From an uncultured Candidatus Saccharibacteria bacterium (GTDB taxonomy: Bacteria > Patescibacteriota > Minisyncoccia > Phycocordibacterales > DATDWN01): a stretch of 64,000 nucleotides of DNA. Both the position numbers and the translations under genes were made by a program. Below are positions 15,818-52,413 of this stretch, piece by piece (the stretch's first letter is position 1; each line of letters opens with the position of its first letter). Below the pieces are notes generated by a model. It did not search any database. It worked only from the letters and a program-made list of their open reading frames with translations, and had not been told where the DNA came from. The stretch is from NCBI GenBank assembly GCA_964469605.1, contig CAYXZA010000003.1:3721-67720 (forward strand), read 5' to 3'.

Positions 15818-15908
15818 ATTATATCATTTTTAGATGTAAAAGTCAATAACAACCCTCTTTTGTTTTATTGATATAATATTTTAATCTAAAAATAATTTTA
15901 AAAACAAT
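15818..15908. repeat. Direct repeat copy 1 (~90 bp). It duplicates the gap upstream region.
   Basis: attatatcatttttagatgtaaaagtcaataacaaccctcttttgttttattgatataatatttt... is nearly identical to 17321-17410, with 3 differences. Confidence 0.85.
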
Positions 15909-15913
15909 AAAAG

Positions 15914-15945
15914 CACCTGGGGTTGAGCCAGGTGCGTAGGGTTTA
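15914..15945 (-). terminator. Rho-independent terminator (minus strand) after the 465-aa gene.
   Basis: On the minus strand, gcacctggctcaaccccaggtgc is followed by ttttattgttttt. Confidence 0.5.
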
Positions 15946-15957
15946 AAACATGAGAAA

Positions 15958-17295
15958 CTAGCGGCGAGTCTTAGCTCGGTGAGCAACTTCTTTGAGTTGT
16001 CCCTTGCCACGCTCGTGAGGTCGAACATAGGTCTCATTATCGGCGAGCATGATGCCATGCTCTTCTGCTCGCTTGCGTGATTCTGGCGTGGCCTTCTTGC
16101 CTTGCGGAAGTCGGCGGATATGCCAGATCACTTCGTGGCGAGAGATTTCACGAGAACGCTTGGTTGTGTCGGCATCCGCCTTTTCAATTTCCTCTTCCAA
16201 CTCTTGGAGGAGTAAGTCCACGTTTTCGAGTGAACGGATACGCGGAATGAAGAGGTCGAGGTTAAGAAAATGCTTTTTCTTCAGGATATTCTTGATCCTG
16301 TCGAGCACTCCTACGGCGATCGGTGGCTTTGGCATTTTCTCAACTGTCGTGATCGGAACCACGAGGTCGTAGAGTCGGAGAGCTTGAGTGAAGCGAAGGT
16401 ATTCATATAGAGCCACATTGTTGCGACGCTCGAAGAATTGGCGAACAGGCATGAGCCCGAGACCGTAGGAAGCATCCATTTCTCCTTTGATATCCAACGT
16501 CATGAAAACGTGGGCTGGGAAAGAAATTTCCGCACCTACAAATCTACTAATTCCAACTACTCGTTCGGTAGCTTTCGCTCCGATCTGGATGAGGGACTCC
16601 TTGTCTGACAGTCCGATGAAAGCGAACTGTGGAGATATGAACTCTGTCCAGCCAGGGATGAGTTCTCGAATTTCGCAGAAGTCCATGAAGACCCATGCTT
16701 GCGAGGGATCGTGGAGCATGCCATCTTGGAAGAAAGAGTTTTTGACTCCGTACTTCCGAAGGATGGCGAGCTCGTTGATCATATTGGTCGCGTCTTTGGC
16801 TGCTTGGATCGAGTGCTCCTCAATCATGTCTTTTGCTTCTTGTCCAAGCGTAGGGTGAACGAAGAGTTGAGAGGCGAGCCATTCAACTCTATTGACTTCA
16901 CGAACGAAATTCTCCAGACTACTGAACTTGGAATAGAACCAAGTTTCTGTTCCAGTGCCAGAGGCGGAGAGATCAATGTACGTCTTGAGAGTTGCCATGT
17001 TCTTTTCGCCCTTGTCCATTTCAGTTGCGAAGTATGCGGCTACTGCCTGCATTAGCATGTTGCTGCGATTGGTCGAAGCATTTTTGCCAATGCTGTTGAC
17101 TTTGATGCCATCGATCGTGTAGCAGACATCCATATAGGACTGTAGGGCACGATTGAAGTCTTGGTTTTTGACGTAGCGCGTATAGATATCACGCGCCAGT
17201 CTCTTAAGCGTATCGTAAGAGCAGTTCGCGCTGCGAACCAGCACTTGGACCTGCACCTTGAAGGTGAAGTTGGGAATGTCTCGCCATGTGAACAT
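15958..17295 (-). CDS. GC-rich foreign gene for a ~445-465-aa protein of unknown family. The C-terminus is basic and carries R-x4-H motifs (possible HEPN-like, speculative).
   Basis: Long intact ORF at ~50% GC. GGAGG lies 13 nt upstream of the ATG at 17295. The ORF-track start at 17355 falls inside the duplicated repeat. No RT (YxDD), RuvC/Zn-finger, or integrase motifs were seen. Confidence 0.55.
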   Translation of the reverse strand: MFTWRDIPNFTFKVQVQVLVRSANCSYDTLKRLARDIYTRYVKNQDFNRALQSYMDVCYTIDGIKVNSIGKNASTNRSNMLMQAVAAYFATEMDKGEKNMATLKTYIDLSASGTGTETWFYSKFSSLENFVREVNRVEWLASQLFVHPTLGQEAKDMIEEHSIQAAKDATNMINELAILRKYGVKNSFFQDGMLHDPSQAWVFMDFCEIRELIPGWTEFISPQFAFIGLSDKESLIQIGAKATERVVGISRFVGAEISFPAHVFMTLDIKGEMDASYGLGLMPVRQFFERRNNVALYEYLRFTQALRLYDLVVPITTVEKMPKPPIAVGVLDRIKNILKKKHFLNLDLFIPRIRSLENVDLLLQELEEEIEKADADTTKRSREISRHEVIWHIRRLPQGKKATPESRKRAEEHGIMLADNETYVRPHERGKGQLKEVAHRAKTRR

Positions 17296-17320
17296 TACAT
17301 TAACACTGCCTCCGACTCGA

Positions 17321-17410
17321 ATTATATCATTTTTAGATGTAAAAGTCAATAACAACCCTCTTTTGTTTTATTGATATAATATTTTCATCTAAAATAATTT
17401 TTTAAAAACA
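17321..17410. repeat. Direct repeat copy 2 (~90 bp). This is the native upstream/promoter region of gap.
   Basis: Identical to 15818-15908 apart from 3 positions. It abuts the gap ATG at 17411. Confidence 0.85.
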
Positions 17411-26769: not shown

Positions 26770-26846
26770 GCGCGCTTAGCTCAGTTGGCTAGAGCGTCTC
26801 ATTGACGTTGAGAAGGTCATAGGTTCAAGTCCTATAGCGTGCACCA
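26770..26846 (+). tRNA. tRNA-Val (anticodon GAC), CCA encoded.
   Basis: Acceptor gcgcgct/agcgtgc. Anticodon stem tctca/tgaga with loop ttgacgt. T arm atagg-ttcaagt-cctat. The 3' end is cca. Confidence 0.85.
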
Positions 26847-26861
26847 ATAGCAACTTTCTAG

Positions 26862-27237
26862 TCAACAAGCCATGTAAATGGCTTTGAAAGCGTTGCAAAC
26901 ACTGTGTTTTTCTTGCCCATAAAAAAGTTCAAGAAGATCTTCTCGAGGTAGAAGTTCAATTCTTGCATAGATTTGGTTGTGGCTATGATTTGAGCCACTT
27001 TTTCCATGTTGTTCGAGAAACTCCGACATTAGCAGGATCGTACTCTTTTCAGCCTCAATAAGCTTCCTGTAGTTTCTCAATGTCGCCCTGTACTTGCTTG
27101 TGTTCGGTCTTGGCTTTTAGCGGATCTACCTTGAATCCCTCGATAAAACATGAATCTTTCTCATCGAGAATAAACTCATTGATGCGAATGTGCTTCACCG
27201 CAAGTACTTTCTTTTTGCCATTTAAGGAGTTGAGCAA
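26862..27237 (-). pseudogene. Fragmented tyrosine recombinase (integrase) remnant next to tRNA-Val.
   Basis: Two short frame-shifted ORFs. The C-terminal fragment SGSNHSHNQIYARIE resembles the integrase box II (lGHs...T..Y.h) carrying the catalytic Tyr. The position next to a tRNA 3' end fits an integration site. Homology is weak. Confidence 0.35.
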
Positions 27238-27283
27238 TACTCAGTGTTCTTTAAAGTTCATCGTTAAGTTACCTATTAACTTC

Positions 27284-27312
27284 TTGACAAGATTGTAGTA
27301 TAGATGTATAAT
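27284..27312 (+). promoter_or_regulatory. Perfect consensus sigma70 promoter (TTGACA-N17-TATAAT) driving the 4-gene island operon.
   Basis: ttgaca at 27284-27289 and tataat at 27307-27312. The leader that follows contains the hairpin ttggccttttggccaa. Confidence 0.5.
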
Positions 27313-27375
27313 GGTGATTGAGTTTACGTTCTTTGTTTGGCCTTTTGGCCAACCCCTTAGCCTGAGGAGGGCAAC

Positions 27376-27717
27376 ATGACCAACACGATCGTTATCAACG
27401 GCGTCACCATCAGTGGTGGTGGCCAAAACGTCACCATTCGCAATGGCAAGGTGATCGTCGATGGTAAGAATGTTACGCCGGATGCGAAGGAGATCAACAT
27501 CTTCGTCACTGGCAACGTCCAATGTATCGAGGCTGACGCTTGTCAGAAGATTTCCGTCACCGGAGATGCTGGCAGTGTCATTACCCAGAGTGGCAATGTG
27601 GAAGTTGGCGGCGCCATCGGTGGCAACGTCAACACGATGTCGGGAGACGTCGACTGTGGCGGCGCCATCGGTGGCAACGTCAACACGATGTCGGGGGACA
27701 TCAAGTCGCACCAGTAA
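27376..27717 (+). CDS. Beta-solenoid repeat protein (bactofilin/DUF583-like polymer-forming fold, tentative).
   Basis: 113-aa ORF at ~50% GC. SD gaggaggg lies 6 nt upstream of the ATG. Repeated G-x-V/I-x-x-G-x-V units occur, including a tandem GGAIGGNVNTMSGD(V/I) repeat. Confidence 0.45.
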   Translation: MTNTIVINGVTISGGGQNVTIRNGKVIVDGKNVTPDAKEINIFVTGNVQCIEADACQKISVTGDAGSVITQSGNVEVGGAIGGNVNTMSGDVDCGGAIGGNVNTMSGDIKSHQ

Positions 27718-28051
27718 GGTCAAGTATTTTACAACTCGGTTACGAGCGCTTCAGTGATGGAGCGCTCTTTCTTTTGTGATGGTTGTATTTTGAGAATGAC
27801 CGGATGCACTTTGATGGGTTCTTTTTGCTCGGATGCTTTGATCGCTTTGACTTGCTCCTATGTAAAGAAAAGTGCCATGTTCTATTTCAGTATCGAATTG
27901 GCAGTGAGGAATGCAAGGTTGGTTTCCATTTTTTTTGAGGTGGTTTCATGTTTAAAGTTGACGGAACTATTATAGTATTTTACAATAGAGCCTCCAACAT
28001 GGGATTTGCACATGTTGGTTGAAGATCTTTGAAAGTGAAAGGAGGATTTGC

Positions 28052-28780
28052 ATGAATGAAGACACATGTGAGGTGTTGCGTGGACATTTTGAAGATTGTC
28101 TACAACATCTTGGACAAGTTTTCGCCTCAAAAATAAGAAAAGGTTCGCGAGGGGCGGCACAGGCAAAAAAGCCTATAGCTGAATTTTGCGGAGTCACGAT
28201 TGATTCCGTAACTCGATGGCTTCATGGTACTGGATCGTTACCTGTTGGCAAGTTATACATCAAGTTGATGTGTTTTCTCGACATGACAGGTTATCGAGTG
28301 ATCGAGTTGGAGAATATGTCGAAACCTCGTCGAAACTTTATTGAATTTATCGGCTATGGACTCTTTTCCAGTGATCAGGCTGCAGAGTTTCTCGGCTATC
28401 GCTCCACATCCACTCTTTATCAAGTTCTGCAAGGTAATCACCGCATAAGTGAGGACAAGGATCAGAAGATGTGGGATTTGTTTAAGGAAAGAGTGCGGGA
28501 ATTGCAGCAGGAGAAAGAAAGGTTGCAAAAGTTGTACCGATTGGATATTCCGTTGAAGACGGAGTTGTCCAAAATTTCGGGAAGACAAATGTCAGCTAGT
28601 CGCTCAGAAGCGATAGTCAGTATCATGAAAGGTTTGCTTGCGTTGATTGATGAGAGTTCTATTGAGAAACTTTTTGACGACGGGCAAGCAGATCTGAAAG
28701 AATCATCTGATACTATACTCCACCTATTGGCGCACTTGAGTGCCTTACATTCCCGTTTGGTCATGTCCGAGAAACAGTAG
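28052..28780 (+). CDS. Helix-turn-helix DNA-binding protein with two XRE-like HTH segments and a coiled-coil C-terminus.
   Basis: SD aaggagg lies 6 nt upstream of the ATG at 28052. The ORF-track start at 28019 is a TTG codon. HTH-like segments: IAEFCGVTIDSVTRWLHG and AAEFLGYRSTSTLYQVLQG. Confidence 0.5.
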   Translation: MNEDTCEVLRGHFEDCLQHLGQVFASKIRKGSRGAAQAKKPIAEFCGVTIDSVTRWLHGTGSLPVGKLYIKLMCFLDMTGYRVIELENMSKPRRNFIEFIGYGLFSSDQAAEFLGYRSTSTLYQVLQGNHRISEDKDQKMWDLFKERVRELQQEKERLQKLYRLDIPLKTELSKISGRQMSASRSEAIVSIMKGLLALIDESSIEKLFDDGQADLKESSDTILHLLAHLSALHSRLVMSEKQ

Positions 28781-28794
28781 AAAGGAGGTAGTTA

Positions 28795-29055
28795 ATGTCG
28801 AACGACCAATGTTACCAAGCTGTCGTCGATAAGATCATTCCTGGTGGCAAGCATGGCCCCTATGCAGTTGCGCGTTCTGAGAAACTTGGTTCAATCACCT
28901 TCTCGCTTGAAGGCAAGGTCTGGCAAGAGAGAGATTGGCCAGAACCTGGGACATGCGTGATGTTATCACAAGTCAGGAAGAAGCGCGCCGGGTGGCGCGC
29001 ACAACATGGGCGGTTCATTGAACCATCCGACGTCCAAACAACCCAGCAACAGTAA
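28795..29055 (+). CDS. Hypothetical small protein (86 aa).
   Basis: SD aaaggagg is present upstream. GC-rich. No recognised motif. Confidence 0.4.
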   Translation: MSNDQCYQAVVDKIIPGGKHGPYAVARSEKLGSITFSLEGKVWQERDWPEPGTCVMLSQVRKKRAGWRAQHGRFIEPSDVQTTQQQ

Positions 29056-29067
29056 GGAGAAAAAGCA

Positions 29068-29868
29068 ATGAGCAGTCAGAAAATCGAGAAAGTGGCACTG
29101 AAGGACTTGAAGATTAGTCTGTTTGTTCGCAAACAGCTGAATCAAGAACATGCACTGTATCTTGCAGAGCTCATCGAGAATGGTACCCAACTCCCTCCAA
29201 TCCAAATCACAAGTGATTATGTGGTGATCGATGGACGGCATCGTATCGAGGCTCACGGTCTTAATAATCAAAATGAGATCATGGCTGAGATTGTGGATAA
29301 TATTGTAACTGATAGTGAACTTATTTCTATGGCCTACAGGGCCAATATAGGTGGTCCGCTTCCACCATCGCAGCATGACACGGAGTATACGGTTATGTTA
29401 CTTCTTGATCGTGGAGAGAATATAAAGCGCATCGCCTGTATGCTAGGTCTTCCTATTAATCTGGCACGCAAGTACATCAACTCAGTGCAGTCGAAGGTTT
29501 TGCGTAAAAAGTTGATAAAGGCTATTAGAGGGATCACTGAGGATGGTATTACTATCGATACGGCCGCCGATAAGTACGGGGTGAATGCTGATTCCATCAA
29601 ACAAATGATTTCCGGCCAAAATAGGAAGTGTAATAGTGATTTTTTCTCAGATGTTATGAAAGGTCTCAATGTGACCTATAAATCGGTGAATTTGAAGAAA
29701 GCAGCCCTTTTCAAAGAATTAATGCAAAAATATGATGATAGTGATGTGACAGATGAGCAGGTGGAAGAAGTTTTTGCGCGTATCGAAAAGCTTCATAATC
29801 GGTCCGCTCATCTTGTTAATGAATGGAAGAGGCGGTTCGAGGCGAAAGGTAAGATTGCAAGGTTGTAG
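29068..29868 (+). CDS. ParB/Srx-fold (ParB N-terminal domain) protein.
   Basis: SD aaggag is present upstream. N-terminal region VALKDLKISLFVRKQ...LPPIQITSDYVVIDGRHRIEAHGL matches the ParB N-terminal domain pattern (arginine-containing H/RR box after vIDG). Confidence 0.6.
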   Translation: MSSQKIEKVALKDLKISLFVRKQLNQEHALYLAELIENGTQLPPIQITSDYVVIDGRHRIEAHGLNNQNEIMAEIVDNIVTDSELISMAYRANIGGPLPPSQHDTEYTVMLLLDRGENIKRIACMLGLPINLARKYINSVQSKVLRKKLIKAIRGITEDGITIDTAADKYGVNADSIKQMISGQNRKCNSDFFSDVMKGLNVTYKSVNLKKAALFKELMQKYDDSDVTDEQVEEVFARIEKLHNRSAHLVNEWKRRFEAKGKIARL

Positions 29869-29890
29869 TAGTTCTTTTGTGTAAGTATGG

Positions 29891-29930
29891 GCCCGAGGTA
29901 TCACACTCTATGTGTACCTCGGTTTTTTAT
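29891..29930 (+). terminator. Rho-independent terminator at the end of the island operon.
   Basis: cccgaggtatcacactctatgtgtacctcgg is followed by ttttttatatttttt. Confidence 0.5.
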
Positions 29931-30727
29931 ATTTTTTATAATTGCACCAATTGTTTCAAATAAATAAAGTTTTATTCACCAATATTTCTGGTGTAGTTAT
30001 CTAAAAAATACTCCCATCCTTTCAAAAGAAAAATCCATATTCGCCAAATCAAAATTAGCAAAGAGTTGTTTTTTGTGAAATATTTAATAAAGTAATTGGT
30101 GATAAGGATATTCAATTAATAATTTTGAAAATAGGTGTGTAAGATGGAGAAATGTATTATTAAAATATTATTTTATATATAGCAGAAACCCTCGGCTTGT
30201 TGAGCCGAGGGTTGTTTTAGATCTCTAAACTTGCCCCTTAGTTATTCGACTCGATGTTAGCATCGAGAGCACAGCCACTCTTTTCTGATGATGTGGCGTT
30301 AGAATGTGCTAGGAAGTTCATTTTTCGAATGAGCCTCGGGTATTTTTTGACCCGAACACCTTTTTTAGTGGTGCTCCTTCTTCAATTCAGAGTTACTGTG
30401 GAGTGATTTTTGTCTAACATCTCACACCCCAGGGCTTAGAAATCTTTGGCTTAATTTATGTTTGCGCAGGCCTTTGCGCTTTTAGTTACTTCATTTAATG
30501 TACCCTCCTTTTAAGGTACATCATTAATGATATCATATTATTAATATTATGTCAAGTTTTTAAATAATAATTTTTTAACATAAATTAAACCAATCTTAAA
30601 GTGGTTTTTATAAATATTTAATTTAAGTTATCTGGTTAAAAAAATCAAAATTTTTTAATTACTTTAATCAGTGGGCGAATGTATTATTATAATTCGCCCA
30701 AAATAATCATATTTTTATAGCATTTAT

Positions 30728-31031: not shown

Positions 31032-31153
31032 TGGGCAAGGAGGGACTTTACCTCGAAAAAACTAGTCTCAGTCAGACTAGTTTTTTCTGGTCACCAGTTT
31101 GTCGACAAGCACTGCTGTGCTCGTAGACCGACAAACTGTTCTCGTCCCTCTCA
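31032..31153 (-). other. tRNA-Leu trailer element (distal copy). It has a tRNA-Leu 3'-end copy, a terminator hairpin, an anti-T-arm motif and a covarying stem-loop.
   Basis: tgggcaaggagggact (31032-31047) matches the tRNA-Leu(TAG) 3' end. Hairpin aaaaaactagtctcagtcagactagtttttt is present. Minus-sense gagggacgagaac and ggtctacgagcacagcagtgcttgtcgac are present. Confidence 0.4.
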
Positions 31154-31165
31154 TAAAGCTCCGCT

Positions 31166-31318
31166 TTATTCGAGAAATACCCCTCAGCTTTGCTGTGGGG
31201 ATTGGTAAAAGAGTGTCGGCGGTGGCCGACTCCTATACGAATATAAGAGCCATGGTTCGCCTCGCCAATACCTCGTTTGCTCTGCCAGCGAGGATCAGGC
31301 GAGGCGACTGCTTTTATT
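31166..31318. repeat. GC-rich structured repeat family, copy A (~150 bp).
   Basis: ttattcgagaaatacccctcagctttgctgtgggg...cgcctcgccaatacctcgtttgctctgccagcgaggatcaggcgaggcgactgcttttatt is ~96% identical to 51429-51581. Strong internal hairpins are present. Confidence 0.8.
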
Positions 31319-31478
31319 CTTGCTCCAACTAAAAAGCCGCCTAAGCGACTTTTTAGTGTGGACGAACAGTGTGGCTTTCCGAACTAGGGAAGTATAAGGG
31401 TTAAATAAGTTTAAGTATTAAAGAATTAAGTTTCATAAACGAGAAAGCCACGAGTGGTCTGTGACTTCTCGTGGCTTG

Positions 31479-31862: not shown

Positions 31863-31989
31863 GTTGCAACTTTTGTTTTTCGTGAACTTAAAACAAAGTC
31901 GCGACCCCGCCTCACTTCTTTCTGGCTTTCTCGTCCCTCTCCAAACACACAAAAAATCACCTCAAGAAAGAAGTGATTTTTAGGTGTTG

Positions 31990-32071
31990 TGGGCAAGGAG
32001 GGACTCGAACCCTCAATCCTTACGGAACTAGTTCCTAAGACTAGCGCGTATACCAATTCCGCCACTTGCCC
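31990..32071 (-). tRNA. tRNA-Leu (anticodon TAG) with a long variable arm.
   Basis: Reverse complement is gggcaagtggcggaattggtatacgcgctagtcttaggaactagttccgtaaggattgagggttcgagtccctccttgccca. Anticodon loop cttagga. Confidence 0.85.
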
Positions 32072-40404: not shown

Positions 40405-40488
40405 GCGTCGGTGGCGGAGTGGTCAATCGCAGCAGACTGTAAATCTGTCGCCCATTGGGCTACGTAGGTTCAAATCCTACCCGGCGCA
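40405..40488 (+). tRNA. tRNA-Tyr (anticodon GTA) with a long variable arm.
   Basis: Acceptor gcgtcgg/ccggcgc. Anticodon loop ctgtaaa. Variable arm cgcccattgggc. T arm gtagg-ttcaaat-cctac. Confidence 0.8.
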
Positions 40489-40885
40489 CAAAAATAATTC
40501 CCGTAAGGGAATTTTTTGGTGTGCAGGGAATAAACCTCTTGGGAGAGGTTTATGTTAGGATTTGAACGACGGAGCTAAAAATTTTCAGTAGAAAATTTTG
40601 CGAGTCGGTGCCTAGCCTAAAATTTTTTGACGAAAAAATTTTAAGGCGAAGGAAAACTCCTACCCGGCGCACAAAAAGAAAACCCGAAAGGGTTTTTCTT
40701 TTTGTCGACCGGAGCAAAGCATCGCTTTGCGAGTAGGATTTGAACAGAAAAGCGGTCTACAAATTCAGCAGAATTTGTCGCTTTTCTGGCGACTAGGTTT
40801 TTTCTGAGTGGCGACGAAGAAAAAATGTAGTCAAAATTCCTACCCGGCGCACAAAAATAATTCCCGAAAGGGAATTTTTTGATTT
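40489..40885 (+). repeat. Three tandem tRNA-Tyr trailer units. Each ends in a copy of the tRNA 3' end (tcctacccggcgcaca) plus a terminator-like hairpin.
   Basis: tcctacccggcgcaca occurs at 40473-40488 (the tRNA itself), 40659-40674 and 40848-40863. Each is followed by aattcccg.aagggaatt or gaaaacccgaaagggttttc. Anti-T motif aggatttgaac occurs at 40557 and 40736. Covarying stem-loop at 40755-40782. Confidence 0.75.
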
Positions 40886-45326: not shown

Positions 45327-45345
45327 TAACTAAAAGTTGAGAACA

Positions 45346-45376
45346 AAAACAGACTGGCTAAAACCAGTCTGTTTTT
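45346..45376 (+). terminator. Rho-independent terminator after the 1307-aa gene.
   Basis: aaaaacagactggctaaaaccagtctgttttt. Confidence 0.55.
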
Positions 45377-45387
45377 CTTTTATATTT

Positions 45388-45447
45388 TTATTCGAGAAAT
45401 ACCTCGCAGCTTTGCTGCGAGGATCAGGCGAGGTGACTGCTTTTATT
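45388..45447. repeat. GC-rich structured repeat family, copy B (internally deleted, ~60 bp).
   Basis: ttattcgagaaatacctcgcagctttgctgcgaggatcaggcgaggtgactgcttttatt keeps both ends of the ~150-bp family. The 3' end, ttttatt, supplies the TAA stop of dnaE on the minus strand. Confidence 0.7.
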
Positions 45448-50731: not shown

Positions 50732-51421
50732 ATGAATTTTAATGATTTTGAACAAAAAATAAATATTATTTTTAAAGATAAAGATCTTTTAAGACAAGCA
50801 TTTATACATAGGTCTTATCTAAATGAAAATAAAAATTTAAAAACTGATCATAATGAAAGATTGGAGTTTTTAGGTGATGCTATATTGGAACTTGTTATTA
50901 CAGATTATTTATTTCATAACTATCCGGATAAAAATGAGGGTATTTTGACATCTTATAGGTCAGCCCTTGTAAATGCAGATACTTGTGCATCTATTGCATC
51001 TGATTTGGGTGTAAATGAACTTCTGCTCTTGTCAAAAGGTGAGAGTAAAGATACAGGAAGAGCTAGACAATATATACTTGCAAATACACTAGAAGCTATA
51101 ATCGGGGCAATATATCTAGATCAAGGTTATGAAAAATCTAAATCTTTTATTGATGAAAATTTTATTCCACTTATAGATACAATAACAAAAGAGGGTTTAC
51201 ATATAGATGCTAAAAGTTTATTTCAAGAAAAAGCACAGGAGTTTTTAGGAATAACCCCTTTATATAAAACTATAAAAGAATCTGGCCCAGATCATGACAA
51301 AGTATTTACAGTGGCACTTTTTGTTGGTGATCAGGAAGTTTCAAATGGTTCTGGTAAATCAAAACAAGATGCTGAACAAGATGCTGCCAAAAATGCTCTT
51401 GTAAAAAACAATTGGAAATAA
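50732..51421 (+). CDS. rnc: Ribonuclease III.
   Basis: RNase III signature ERLEFLGDAILELVITDYLF is present. A C-terminal dsRBD is present. Confidence 0.85.
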   Translation: MNFNDFEQKINIIFKDKDLLRQAFIHRSYLNENKNLKTDHNERLEFLGDAILELVITDYLFHNYPDKNEGILTSYRSALVNADTCASIASDLGVNELLLLSKGESKDTGRARQYILANTLEAIIGAIYLDQGYEKSKSFIDENFIPLIDTITKEGLHIDAKSLFQEKAQEFLGITPLYKTIKESGPDHDKVFTVALFVGDQEVSNGSGKSKQDAEQDAAKNALVKNNWK

Positions 51422-51428
51422 TTTAAAT

Positions 51429-51581
51429 TTATTCGATAAATACCCCTCAGTTTTGCTGTGGGGATTGGTAAAATAGTGTTGGCGGTGGCCGACTCCTATA
51501 CGAATATAAGAGCCCTGGTTCGCCTCGCCAATACCTCGTCTGCTCTGCCAGCGAGGATCAGGCGAGGTGACTGCTTTTATT
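51429..51581. repeat. GC-rich structured repeat family, copy C (~150 bp).
   Basis: ~96% identical to 31166-31318. It lies between convergent genes. Its 3' end supplies the TAA stop of the minus-strand dehydrogenase-like gene. Confidence 0.8.
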
Positions 51582-52413
51582 TAGATTTTTTGTCTCTAAT
51601 ATTTGTATTTACTTTGAGCACAGATTCTAATAGCTCCGGTGTATAACCGTTTTCTTTTGAAGCTTTGACTATTGCATTTACATCTTTTGGAAGACATTTT
51701 CCTCCGAAACCTCTATTGTTTTCAAATACTGTGCTATGTGATCTACCCATTCTTCCATCTAAAAGCCAAAGTTCTCTAAGTTCATTGTAGTCAACTCCAA
51801 GATTTTCAGCTATATCAAAGAATTCATTACAAAAAGTAACTTTTGTTGCTAAAAATGCATTTTCCATATATTTGCATAATTCTGCTGTTGTGCTGTCTGT
51901 TTGGTAAAACCTGGGTTCAGGGCCATAAACTTTTTTAAAGAAAGTTAGTATTTCTTTTCTGGTTTCTTTTTCTCCACCTATTATTACAAAATCGTGTTTT
52001 TTCATATCTGTTGGGTCTGGGTATCCTTTCCAGAATGGTATTTCATATTTTCCTTCACCTATATACTCCGGACTAAAACATATATTTTTGCCAGTTTTTT
52101 TAATAAGCCTTTCTGTTGTTTTTGGTGGTATTGTGCTTTTTATAAGTATATTTTTAGCATCGATCCAAGAAACAACTTCTTCTACAAGTGAGGTGTCACA
52201 AGATCCATCGTCTTTCATTTGTGTTGGCACACAAACAACTGCCAAATCAGCTTTGCTTACTTTTTTCTTATCTTTGAATTCTTTATAGTATGGGTCATAA
52301 ACACAAACATCAAAATGGTCTTTAAAAAAGTTATAAACTGCTTTACCAACATAACCATAACCAATAATAGCTACTCTTTCTTTTATTTTTTCTTCTTTTT
52401 TGATCTTTTTCAT
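51577..52413 (-). CDS. Short nucleotide-sugar dehydrogenase family protein (UDP-glucose/GDP-mannose dehydrogenase-like; lacks the C-terminal domain).
   Basis: N-terminal Rossmann motif VAIIGYGYVGKAV is present. VCVPTQ is present. Central-domain segment ELCKYMENAFLATKVTFCNEF is present. Confidence 0.55.
   Translation of the reverse strand: MKKIKKEEKIKERVAIIGYGYVGKAVYNFFKDHFDVCVYDPYYKEFKDKKKVSKADLAVVCVPTQMKDDGSCDTSLVEEVVSWIDAKNILIKSTIPPKTTERLIKKTGKNICFSPEYIGEGKYEIPFWKGYPDPTDMKKHDFVIIGGEKETRKEILTFFKKVYGPEPRFYQTDSTTAELCKYMENAFLATKVTFCNEFFDIAENLGVDYNELRELWLLDGRMGRSHSTVFENNRGFGGKCLPKDVNAIVKASKENGYTPELLESVLKVNTNIRDKKSK

Follow-up and report, generated by a model that had tools for sequence, protein, structure and literature searches.

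A small mobile GC-rich repeat with IS200-like ends in a Paceibacteria-like genome

Copies of the repeat and their boundaries

The DNA analysed here is a 64,000-nucleotide stretch of contig CAYXZA010000003.1 (the window) from a Paceibacteria-like member of the Patescibacteria with a GC content of ~30%; the named homologues of the window's RNase III, and those of UppP, are labelled Patescibacteria, Minisyncoccia, Paceibacterota or Zambryskibacteria. By exact protein identity, the window also maps to contig JACCDG010608616.1 from a metagenome assembly. The window carries three copies of a small, GC-rich and strongly structured repeat, two of them lying exactly between convergent genes, as a preliminary description made from the sequence alone had noted. 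Having compared these copies with each other, with further copies in a sister metagenome, with element-free loci of relatives and with the ends of known transposons, we consider the repeat to be probably a non-autonomous miniature of the IS200/IS605 family, similar to the elements known as PATEs, that a Y1 transposase mobilises in trans in the form of single-stranded DNA.

A repeat finder paired positions 31165-31318 with positions 51428-51581 (154 nucleotides (nt), 95% identity), and an alignment of the two long copies over 154 columns showed seven differences, i.e., 95.5% identity, in agreement with the roughly 96% given previously. Both intervals open with TTTATT (31165..31170 and 51428..51433, + strand), which we place outside the element as its left-flanking target motif and, in copy 1, as the presumed left cleavage site. 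This leaves two full-length copies of 148 nt on the + strand, copy 1 at 31171..31318 and copy 2 at 51434..51581. The third copy is a short form of 55 nt (45393..45447, + strand) consisting of both termini and a single hairpin, and its own left-flanking TTTATT (45387..45392, + strand) begins 10 nt past the terminator (45345-45376, + strand) of the upstream + strand gene. The 61-nt stretch 45387-45447 shares its first ~38 and its last ~41 nt with the long copies. When up to three mismatches were allowed, a 20-nt core pattern matched the window at these three copies only and gave no match in 100 shuffles. The G+C content of the element is 0.57 (over 31179-31310) against ~0.30 for the window, and it folds with z scores of about -6 to -7 relative to shuffles, so the description of a GC-rich and strongly structured element was accurate.

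Outside the window, a metagenome scan yielded one true extra copy, in a sister metagenome (L010:4453-4605, 96% identical to copy 1), where it is found in AT-rich intergenic sequence immediately upstream of a duplicated 5' half of tRNA-Glu. A six-frame translation of the element retrieved a single protein from the protein database (P0001, a UppP/BacA of 310 amino acids (aa)), which led to the fifth copy: the repeat at L011:6220-6372 (~90% identical, also from a sister metagenome) sits in frame inside the uppP gene (L011:6001-6933) and adds 147 nt, or 49 codons. The UppP homologues among the matches listed are all 252-290 aa long (120/120), against 310 aa with the insert, and the alignment places the insert in a loop between conserved blocks. 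With the uppP insert as the only in-frame case found by the six-frame search, the two open reading frames that overlap the repeat in the window, 31099-31332 and 51458-51646, are artefacts of the repeat, as had been suspected.

Blastn searches against plasmid and phage collections returned nothing that would point to a plasmid or phage origin, and scans of viral contigs with the right-end pattern gave no matches. Seventeen viral matches to a 16-nt left-end pattern have only 17-26 nt in common with the element and were rejected as chance; so were six matches from a reference-genome scan, all of them in genomes of 55-69% GC and sharing only 20-30 nt. Two Logan contigs, L002 and L003 (SRR10036056 and SRR10036063), have an identical rnc and stop inside copy 2, their aligned portion of the element ending at the contig end, 83 nt into the element. 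This is a repeat-induced assembly break, as expected of a dispersed repeat, and the strain that bears this insertion is thus present in other samples as well.

The boundaries of the element are sharp. TTTATT stands immediately to the left of all five copies, with unrelated sequence farther left, and a TTTATT that forms the tip of the element closes the right end of all five, with the flank differing directly beyond. In the alignment, divergence likewise begins immediately outside the two TTTATT motifs and the flanks are unrelated, which excludes a larger segmental duplication as the source of the similarity. The motif occurs ~110 times per strand in the window, and insertion targets are therefore plentiful.

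Empty sites and effects on neighbouring genes

Copy 2 lies between rnc on the + strand (50732-51421), its left neighbour, and a convergent UDP-glucose-dehydrogenase-like gene on the - strand (51577-52413), its right neighbour. Three relatives, whose RNase III proteins are 92%, 82% and 80% identical to that of the window, have the same gene order and no element at this junction; their rnc and convergent 279-aa dehydrogenase-like genes are 10 nt apart, 6 nt apart or overlapping by 4 nt. The spacer of the 92% relative is ...TAA CTTATTATC TTTATT GCTC..., and its single TTTATT contains the stop of the dehydrogenase-like gene. In contrast, the filled junction of the window has one TTTATT before the element, and the element's own terminal TTTATT bears the dehydrogenase stop. 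At the uppP insertion site the closest relative reads AAA AAA TTT ATC AAG (AAAAAATTTATCAAG), so that the empty sites bear one TTTATT at the rnc junction and TTTATC in uppP. Because relatives without the element carry a single TTTATT at the rnc/dehydrogenase junction, the element was inserted there. The element is mobile, given the empty sites in relatives, the unrelated contexts of its copies, one of them inside a gene, and the contigs that break within the repeat.

The stop codons of dnaE (45443-45445, - strand) and of the dehydrogenase-like gene (51577-51579) each lie inside the right-hand TTTATT of a copy, the dnaE stop in the short-copy tip being in the same register as the dehydrogenase stop in copy 2. 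The earlier proposal that the ttttatt end of the repeat supplies these stops is therefore correct as to position and trivial as to meaning, since the tip repeats the TTTATT beside which the element was inserted. The same property explains why copies are tolerated on the stops of convergent genes and in frame in uppP. We considered whether the element had truncated the dehydrogenase-like gene and rejected this: the protein has 278 aa here and 279 aa in the element-free relatives, and with its end unchanged the gene is not truncated. The UDP-glucose/GDP-mannose dehydrogenase-like protein (51577-52413, - strand) lacks the usual C-terminal domain, and its short form, conserved as 279 aa in relatives, is a native variant.

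The 147-nt length of the uppP insert could be read as selection for frame, an argument weakened by the intergenic L010 copy, which shares the same 1-nt shorter length. For this reason the in-frame length seems to be a property of the subfamily and not evidence of selection.

The placement of two window copies exactly between convergent genes also fits a different explanation, in which the repeat is a functional RNA or terminator module (a bidirectional terminator, a 3' untranslated region stabiliser or a small RNA) that has been copied around, its mobility being secondary. As RNA, the + strand has a very stable predicted fold, A-rich/U-rich arms close the 3' stem of the long form on both strands, and the left-end hairpin of IS200 has itself been described as a bidirectional terminator (PMC4513863). 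A scan with a terminator consensus called only the short copy, whose hairpin is terminator-like on the - strand directly after dnaE; the long copies went uncalled, with a 4-nt spacer before their TTTT and the T run paired in the predicted fold, and no Rfam family matched at threshold. Set against such a role, relatives do without the element at the same junction, the + strand gene upstream of the short copy already has its own terminator, and the copies inside uppP and upstream of a tRNA stand where a terminator would be harmful or pointless. As such, we regard a copied terminator or RNA module as quite improbable. Termination may nevertheless occur as a side effect of the element, the terminator-like hairpin after dnaE being the case in point. 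For the 3' untranslated region RNA that the preliminary description had offered as an alternative, the data neither support nor contradict such a side effect, and two copies do not lie behind the 3' end of a gene.

Ends of the element and their likeness to IS200

The anatomy of the element is described here for copy 1, on the + strand. A 9-nt leader, CGAGAAATA, stands at the left tip. The left-end module (31176..31200) comprises a presumed guide, AATA (31176-31179), and hairpin 1, CCCCTCAGC-TTT-GCTGTGGGG (31180-31200), which is present in RNA and single-stranded DNA folds, and the left end as a whole reads GAGAAATA-CCCCTCAGC-TTT-GCTGTGGGG-AT. A central hairpin, GTCGGC-GGTG-GCCGAC (31215..31230), occupies the spacer and is likewise predicted in both types of fold. 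The right-end module (31257..31307), again seen in both, is built from an outer clamp stem of 10 bp, TCGCCTCGCC/GGCGAGGCGA, whose arms enclose a second presumed guide, AATA (31267-31270), and hairpin 2, CCTCG...CGAGG (31271-31293). The clamp stem is followed by the tail CTGCTTTTATT, which ends in TTTATT (31313..31318); this tip is part of the element and its presumed right cleavage site, so that the right end reads AATA-CCTCG...CGAGG-AT...TTTATT. In all copies TTTATT immediately precedes CGAGAAATA at the left and the element ends in GACTGCTTTTATT at the right, between unrelated flanks. The distance from tip to hairpin is 9 nt at the left and 25 nt at the right, and both hairpins are found in all long copies.

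The element has no terminal inverted repeats: its left end, CGAGAAATACCCC, bears no similarity to the reverse complement of its right end, AATAAAAGCAGTCGCC, and no inverted pair links the two ends among the matches listed (the 25 longest of 59). Classical MITEs such as Correia, RUP and ERIC resemble the element in being small, gene-less, repeated, structured and often placed at gene ends. However, they have terminal inverted repeats and the short target duplications of DDE transposases, and with no inverted termini here we ruled out a classical MITE derived from a DDE transposase.

Instead of inverted termini, the two ends share a framed hairpin. The motif AATACC...GGAT frames both hairpins (in the form AAWACC-N13-19-GGAT it was located at 31267); the window has five such motifs on its + strand, each of them in the element, against ~1.5 occurrences expected by chance on both strands together. 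The AATA of each frame (31176-31179 and 31267-31270) is the complement of the TATT at the presumed cleavage sites (31167-31170 and 31315-31318), and this is true in every copy. In IS608, each cleavage site is recognised through pairing with the tetranucleotide just 5' of a hairpin foot; of the two sites, the left is external to the element and the right internal (PMC3201880). This guide rule holds exactly at both ends of our element.

Copy 1 folds as RNA at -69.7 kcal/mol (z -6.7) and as single-stranded DNA with a z of -6.4, and in both forms the - strand folds less well than the + strand. Of the seven one-sided transitions found in stems, five yield a G.T pair on the + strand. This asymmetry is modest and to some extent built in, because the structure was predicted on that strand. 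The central hairpin is nearly invariant across four copies, one C-to-T change giving a T.G pair on the + strand, and hairpin 1 shows a C-G, T.G, T-A series at one pair and a change from T.T to G-C at another. The short copy is composed of the left leader CGAGAAATA, a hairpin at 45402-45422 and the right-end tail ATCAGGCGAGGTGACTGCTTTTATT. Its hairpin is perfect, CCTCGCAGC-TTT-GCTGCGAGG; the loop is that of hairpin 1, the stem ends are those of hairpin 2, and the two arms carry paired changes. Because of this mixture the short form is best seen as a recombinant of the left-end and right-end hairpins. The preliminary description, which had treated 45388-45447 as a copy with its middle deleted, was right about the two termini and the perfect hairpin; the hybrid hairpin does not correspond to a simple internal deletion.

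The element ends resemble those of IS200 in sequence, layout and position. Rfam was run at gathering thresholds on the window, where only tRNAs were found, and at E values up to 10 on the element, where the best match was to STnc490 over the full model length (E 0.018), below threshold. The left-end module at 31176..31200 forms part of this match. The STnc490 consensus matches thousands of E. coli loci directly upstream of IS200C tnpA, and STnc490 is thus the left end of IS200 itself. IS200 measures 707 bp; the hairpin of its left end, at nt 12-34, terminates transcription in both directions, and the tnpA leader contains a second structure (PMC4513863).

We defined the ends of IS200C from five insertion sites. 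The left end begins with GTGCACAGAAAA-CCCCCAGC-TAG-GCTGGGGG-TT, the hairpin being preceded by AGAAAA, and the right end reads GAAAAA-CCTCCGGC-TAT-GCCGGAGG-ATATTTATT, so that IS200C terminates in ...GGAGGATATTTATT, with flanks that differ in the five insertions. An IS200-like element of C. perfringens has the right end GGAAATA-CCACCAGC-TAA-GCTGGTGG-ATTTTTATT and terminates in ...GGTGGATTTTTATT. Similar to our element, IS200 (E. coli IS200C, Salmonella and C. perfringens) has no inverted terminal repeats, has a right tip ending in ...TTTATT, and has a subterminal GC hairpin at either end, the two on the same strand, after AAAA or AATA and before (G)GAT. The element follows this layout, with AAAA or AATA before both hairpins, GGAT after them and TTTATT as its last six bases, and shares with IS200C a CCCC/GGGG-type hairpin at the left and a CCTC/GAGG-type hairpin at the right. 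The left hairpin occupies nt 12-34 in IS200 and nt 10-30 in the element, in each case ~10 nt from the left end. By local alignment, the left module aligns with the IS200C left end AGAAA-ACCCC-CAGCTAGGCTGGGGG (1/300 shuffles scored equally well), and the IS200C right end aligns with the corresponding module in the short copy (0/300). Both also insert beside T-rich sites and after terminators: IS200C lies directly past terminators at 3/3 sites where the left flank was read, and the short copy 10 nt past one. The differences are that the element measures 148 nt and lacks tnpA, whereas IS200 has 707-711 bp with tnpA; that its right tail is 25 nt long with an extra 10-bp clamp stem, compared with a 9-nt tail in IS200; that its left target equals its right tip (TTTATT), whereas IS200C follows TTTTT or TTGTT; and that its host is a candidate-phyla-radiation (CPR) bacterium, unlike the IS200 hosts compared.

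On this basis we infer a transposase and a single-strand pathway as follows. The element would keep just the two transposon ends and no transposase gene, and a Y1 (HUH) TnpA encoded elsewhere would bind the subterminal hairpins of both ends, in each case on the top (+) strand. Pairing between TATT and the AATA that precedes the foot of each hairpin would mark the two cleavage points, with cleavage at the left after the flanking TTTATT and at the right after the element's own TTTATT. The top strand would exit as a single-stranded circle and, at a replication fork, re-insert into single-stranded DNA on the 3' side of a further TTTATT ("peel and paste"). With a tip that repeats the target, such an insertion would resemble a 6-bp duplication without disrupting a stop codon or reading frame that spans the target. 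In the three window copies and the uppP copy alike, the top strand lies on the G-rich strand (4/4 informative cases, a small number); this would be the orientation expected for insertion into the lagging-strand template, and four cases prove little.

Several observations weigh against this interpretation. A tblastn search with the IS200C TnpA found no Y1 transposase in the window or the fetched loci, and no full-length parent with these ends was found there. The STnc490 score is far under the gathering score (21.5 vs 56 bits), the right tail from hairpin foot to tip is 25 nt instead of the 9 nt of IS200C, and with five copies the covariation and orientation statistics are weak. GC hairpins with A+T flanks are common in such genomes, and some of the likeness may have arisen by convergence with bidirectional terminators. 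A covariance model (R1), built from 11 hairpins of tnpA-bearing IS200 elements only and used to search 82 kb, ranked the element's left hairpins second, third and fifth (E 0.09-0.5), the left module of copy 1 being the second-best match (E 0.087), and the top rank went to an unrelated terminator-like hairpin at 30179-30218 (E 0.012). The R1 model is too low in information to settle the matter, and hairpin resemblance to IS200 is not decisive by itself. The top-ranked hairpin, AGAAA-CCCTCGGC...GCCGAGGG-TTGTTTT, stands at the end of a GC-rich island; it is probably a terminator, and could be a lone IS200-type end.

The same observations bear on the possibility that the repeat is some other mobile or amplified element, spread by a TTTATT-specific recombinase with a 6-bp duplication or by recombination, and that its likeness to IS200 is convergence. 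The check for target-site duplications that had been suggested found TTTATT on both sides of the element, an arrangement equally expected from IS200-type insertion and from a sequence-specific 6-bp target duplication. A transposase missing from the window and the fetched loci, the modest R1 ranking and the sub-threshold Rfam match would suit this possibility as well. Nevertheless, a DDE transposase would need terminal inverted repeats, which are not present, and the positional features of IS200 coincide in the element, namely the hairpin types, the AAWA before them, the GGAT after them and the TTTATT tip. The exact AATA/TATT complementarity, moreover, has no role in other known mechanisms. We consider an unrelated mobile repeat unlikely and favour the IS200/IS605 interpretation.

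Gene-less derivatives of the IS200/IS605 family are known as PATEs (bioRxiv 10.1101/2023.03.14.532601). Those of haloarchaea and Geobacillus, like our element, retain only the left and right IS200/IS605 hairpin ends and are presumed to be mobilised by TnpA in trans. The described PATEs are of the tnpB type (IS605/IS1341), often with an omega RNA, whereas our element is IS200-like, of the tnpA-only kind, with identical target and tip. PATEs are said often to encode omega RNAs (bioRxiv 10.1101/2023.03.14.532601), and one could imagine a gene-less IS605-type element whose right end holds an omega RNA scaffold for a TnpB or IscB encoded elsewhere, particularly as the ~100-nt right part is highly structured on the + strand and ends exactly at the tip. 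However, those TnpB systems that have been studied have a target motif unlike the tip motif, a difference that protects the RNA's own locus from the nuclease, and here the left-flank and right-tip motifs are the same (TTTATT). The ends resemble those of the IS200 group, which carries tnpA only, no Rfam transposon-associated RNA family matched even at E values up to 10, and the window holds no tnpB or iscB, only a far-sub-threshold HNH-domain match at 61488-62186. An omega RNA element is accordingly a very remote prospect.

The element also shares traits with the REP/BIME repeats associated with RAYT (TnpA-REP) proteins. Its 55-nt form is likewise a single GC hairpin with a conserved 5' tetranucleotide, its long form has two related hairpins as in BIMEs, and both kinds of repeat are intergenic between convergent genes and linked to IS200/IS605 hairpins. 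It differs in having no GTAG/CGTC head, in its direct, not inverted, hairpins and in a low copy number in the DNA seen. With hairpins headed AATACC in place of GTAG/CGTC and two hairpins in direct orientation, we ruled out a REP/BIME assignment. The preliminary description of a small MITE-like or REP-like mobile element is therefore supported, through the empty sites and unrelated contexts, and can be sharpened: the element has neither the inverted termini of a MITE nor the GTAG/CGTC head of a REP, and its IS200-like ends group it with the gene-less IS200/IS605 derivatives. Rickettsia palindromic elements (RPE) are another point of comparison, being ~100-150 nt long, structured and found in frame within open reading frames, like the uppP copy. 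Nonetheless, no sequence relation to our element was found or would be expected, they have no known transposase link, and the element is intragenic in only 1/5 copies.

A more ambitious idea is that these IS200-end modules form a lineage-specific counterpart of REP and RPE in very compact CPR genomes, which we think rather doubtful. Under it, the one-hairpin and two-hairpin forms may persist by restoring stops and by two-way termination between abutting convergent genes, and the 49-residue loop insert in the membrane enzyme UppP may be tolerated and read through.

Neighbouring islands and wider meaning

Other GC-richer features of the window are recorded here in their own right. Modules of ~135-170 nt follow tRNA genes at 40472-40881, 60288-60460 and 31040-31165 (a - strand copy), and at L010 4607-4800; the neighbours are tRNA-Tyr (twice, in tandem) and tRNA-Gln, with tRNA-Glu in L010. 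The modules open with an inverted copy of the T-arm/3' end of the neighbouring tRNA and close with a direct copy of its 3' (or 5') end, and in three of them a long stem contains a shared core, GGTCTAC-N5-CAGCAG-N5-GTCG. Their folding z scores are -4 to -7.6 on both strands, without an Rfam family match, and they look like remnants of miniature integrative elements that target tRNA genes, or like a repeat class not yet described. Element copy 1 is immediately preceded by the inverted module copy at 31085-31149, which is 83% complementary to 60349-60413. Some 950 nt from the intact tRNA-Leu gene there is a fragment identical to its 3' end (GTGGGCAAGGAGGGACT; 31040-31056 vs 31989-32005), which suggests an attachment-site remnant bracketing the stretch with copy 1.

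A 1.4-kb insert of 44% GC (15905-17320) is flanked by 87-nt direct repeats (15818-15904 and 17321-17407, 94% identical) and contains an open reading frame on the - strand (15958-17355) for a 465-aa protein. No match to this protein was found in Pfam, NCBIfam, PADLOC, PHROG or PDB sequences; its family has 309 representatives at E<=1e-3, with a Pfam domain in 0/10 homologues tested. An AlphaFold model made with 50 homologues (pLDDT 87.5, pTM 0.83) shows a protein that starts with a long helical bundle, continues through a beta-rich middle and has invariant Arg, His and Thr in its C-terminal part, and a Foldseek search of the PDB gave a best match of only E 0.19.

Two further islands follow tRNA genes. 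The first (26850-30500, ~43% GC, with short open reading frames) lies directly after tRNA-Val (26770-26846), encodes a ParB-like/helix-turn-helix protein (29068-29868) and a 113-aa protein matching phrog_3163, and is probably an integrated mobile element or prophage remnant. The second (60476-62186), after tRNA-Gln and with 61-nt direct repeats at 60288-60348 and 62280-62340 (79% identical), encodes a DpnI-like methyl-directed restriction enzyme (61003-61491) and, at 61488-62186, the protein with the far-sub-threshold HNH-domain match.

Read as an IS200/IS605-family miniature, this conspicuous GC-rich structured repeat is explained without a new class of RNA, and two spurious open reading frames are removed. 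Remnants of single-strand ("peel and paste") transposons would then be present in a Paceibacteria-like CPR genome, as repeats that break short-read assemblies. The identical target and tip motif would allow insertions on the stop codons of convergent genes without harm, and the one-hairpin recombinant would link IS200 ends to REP-like single hairpins. Were the element indeed a counterpart of REP and RPE, IS200 ends would have given rise for a second time, and independently, to domesticated repeats that structure genomes. The current understanding of the IS200/IS605 family is unchanged, and the element would be ordinary selfish DNA in an unusual host.

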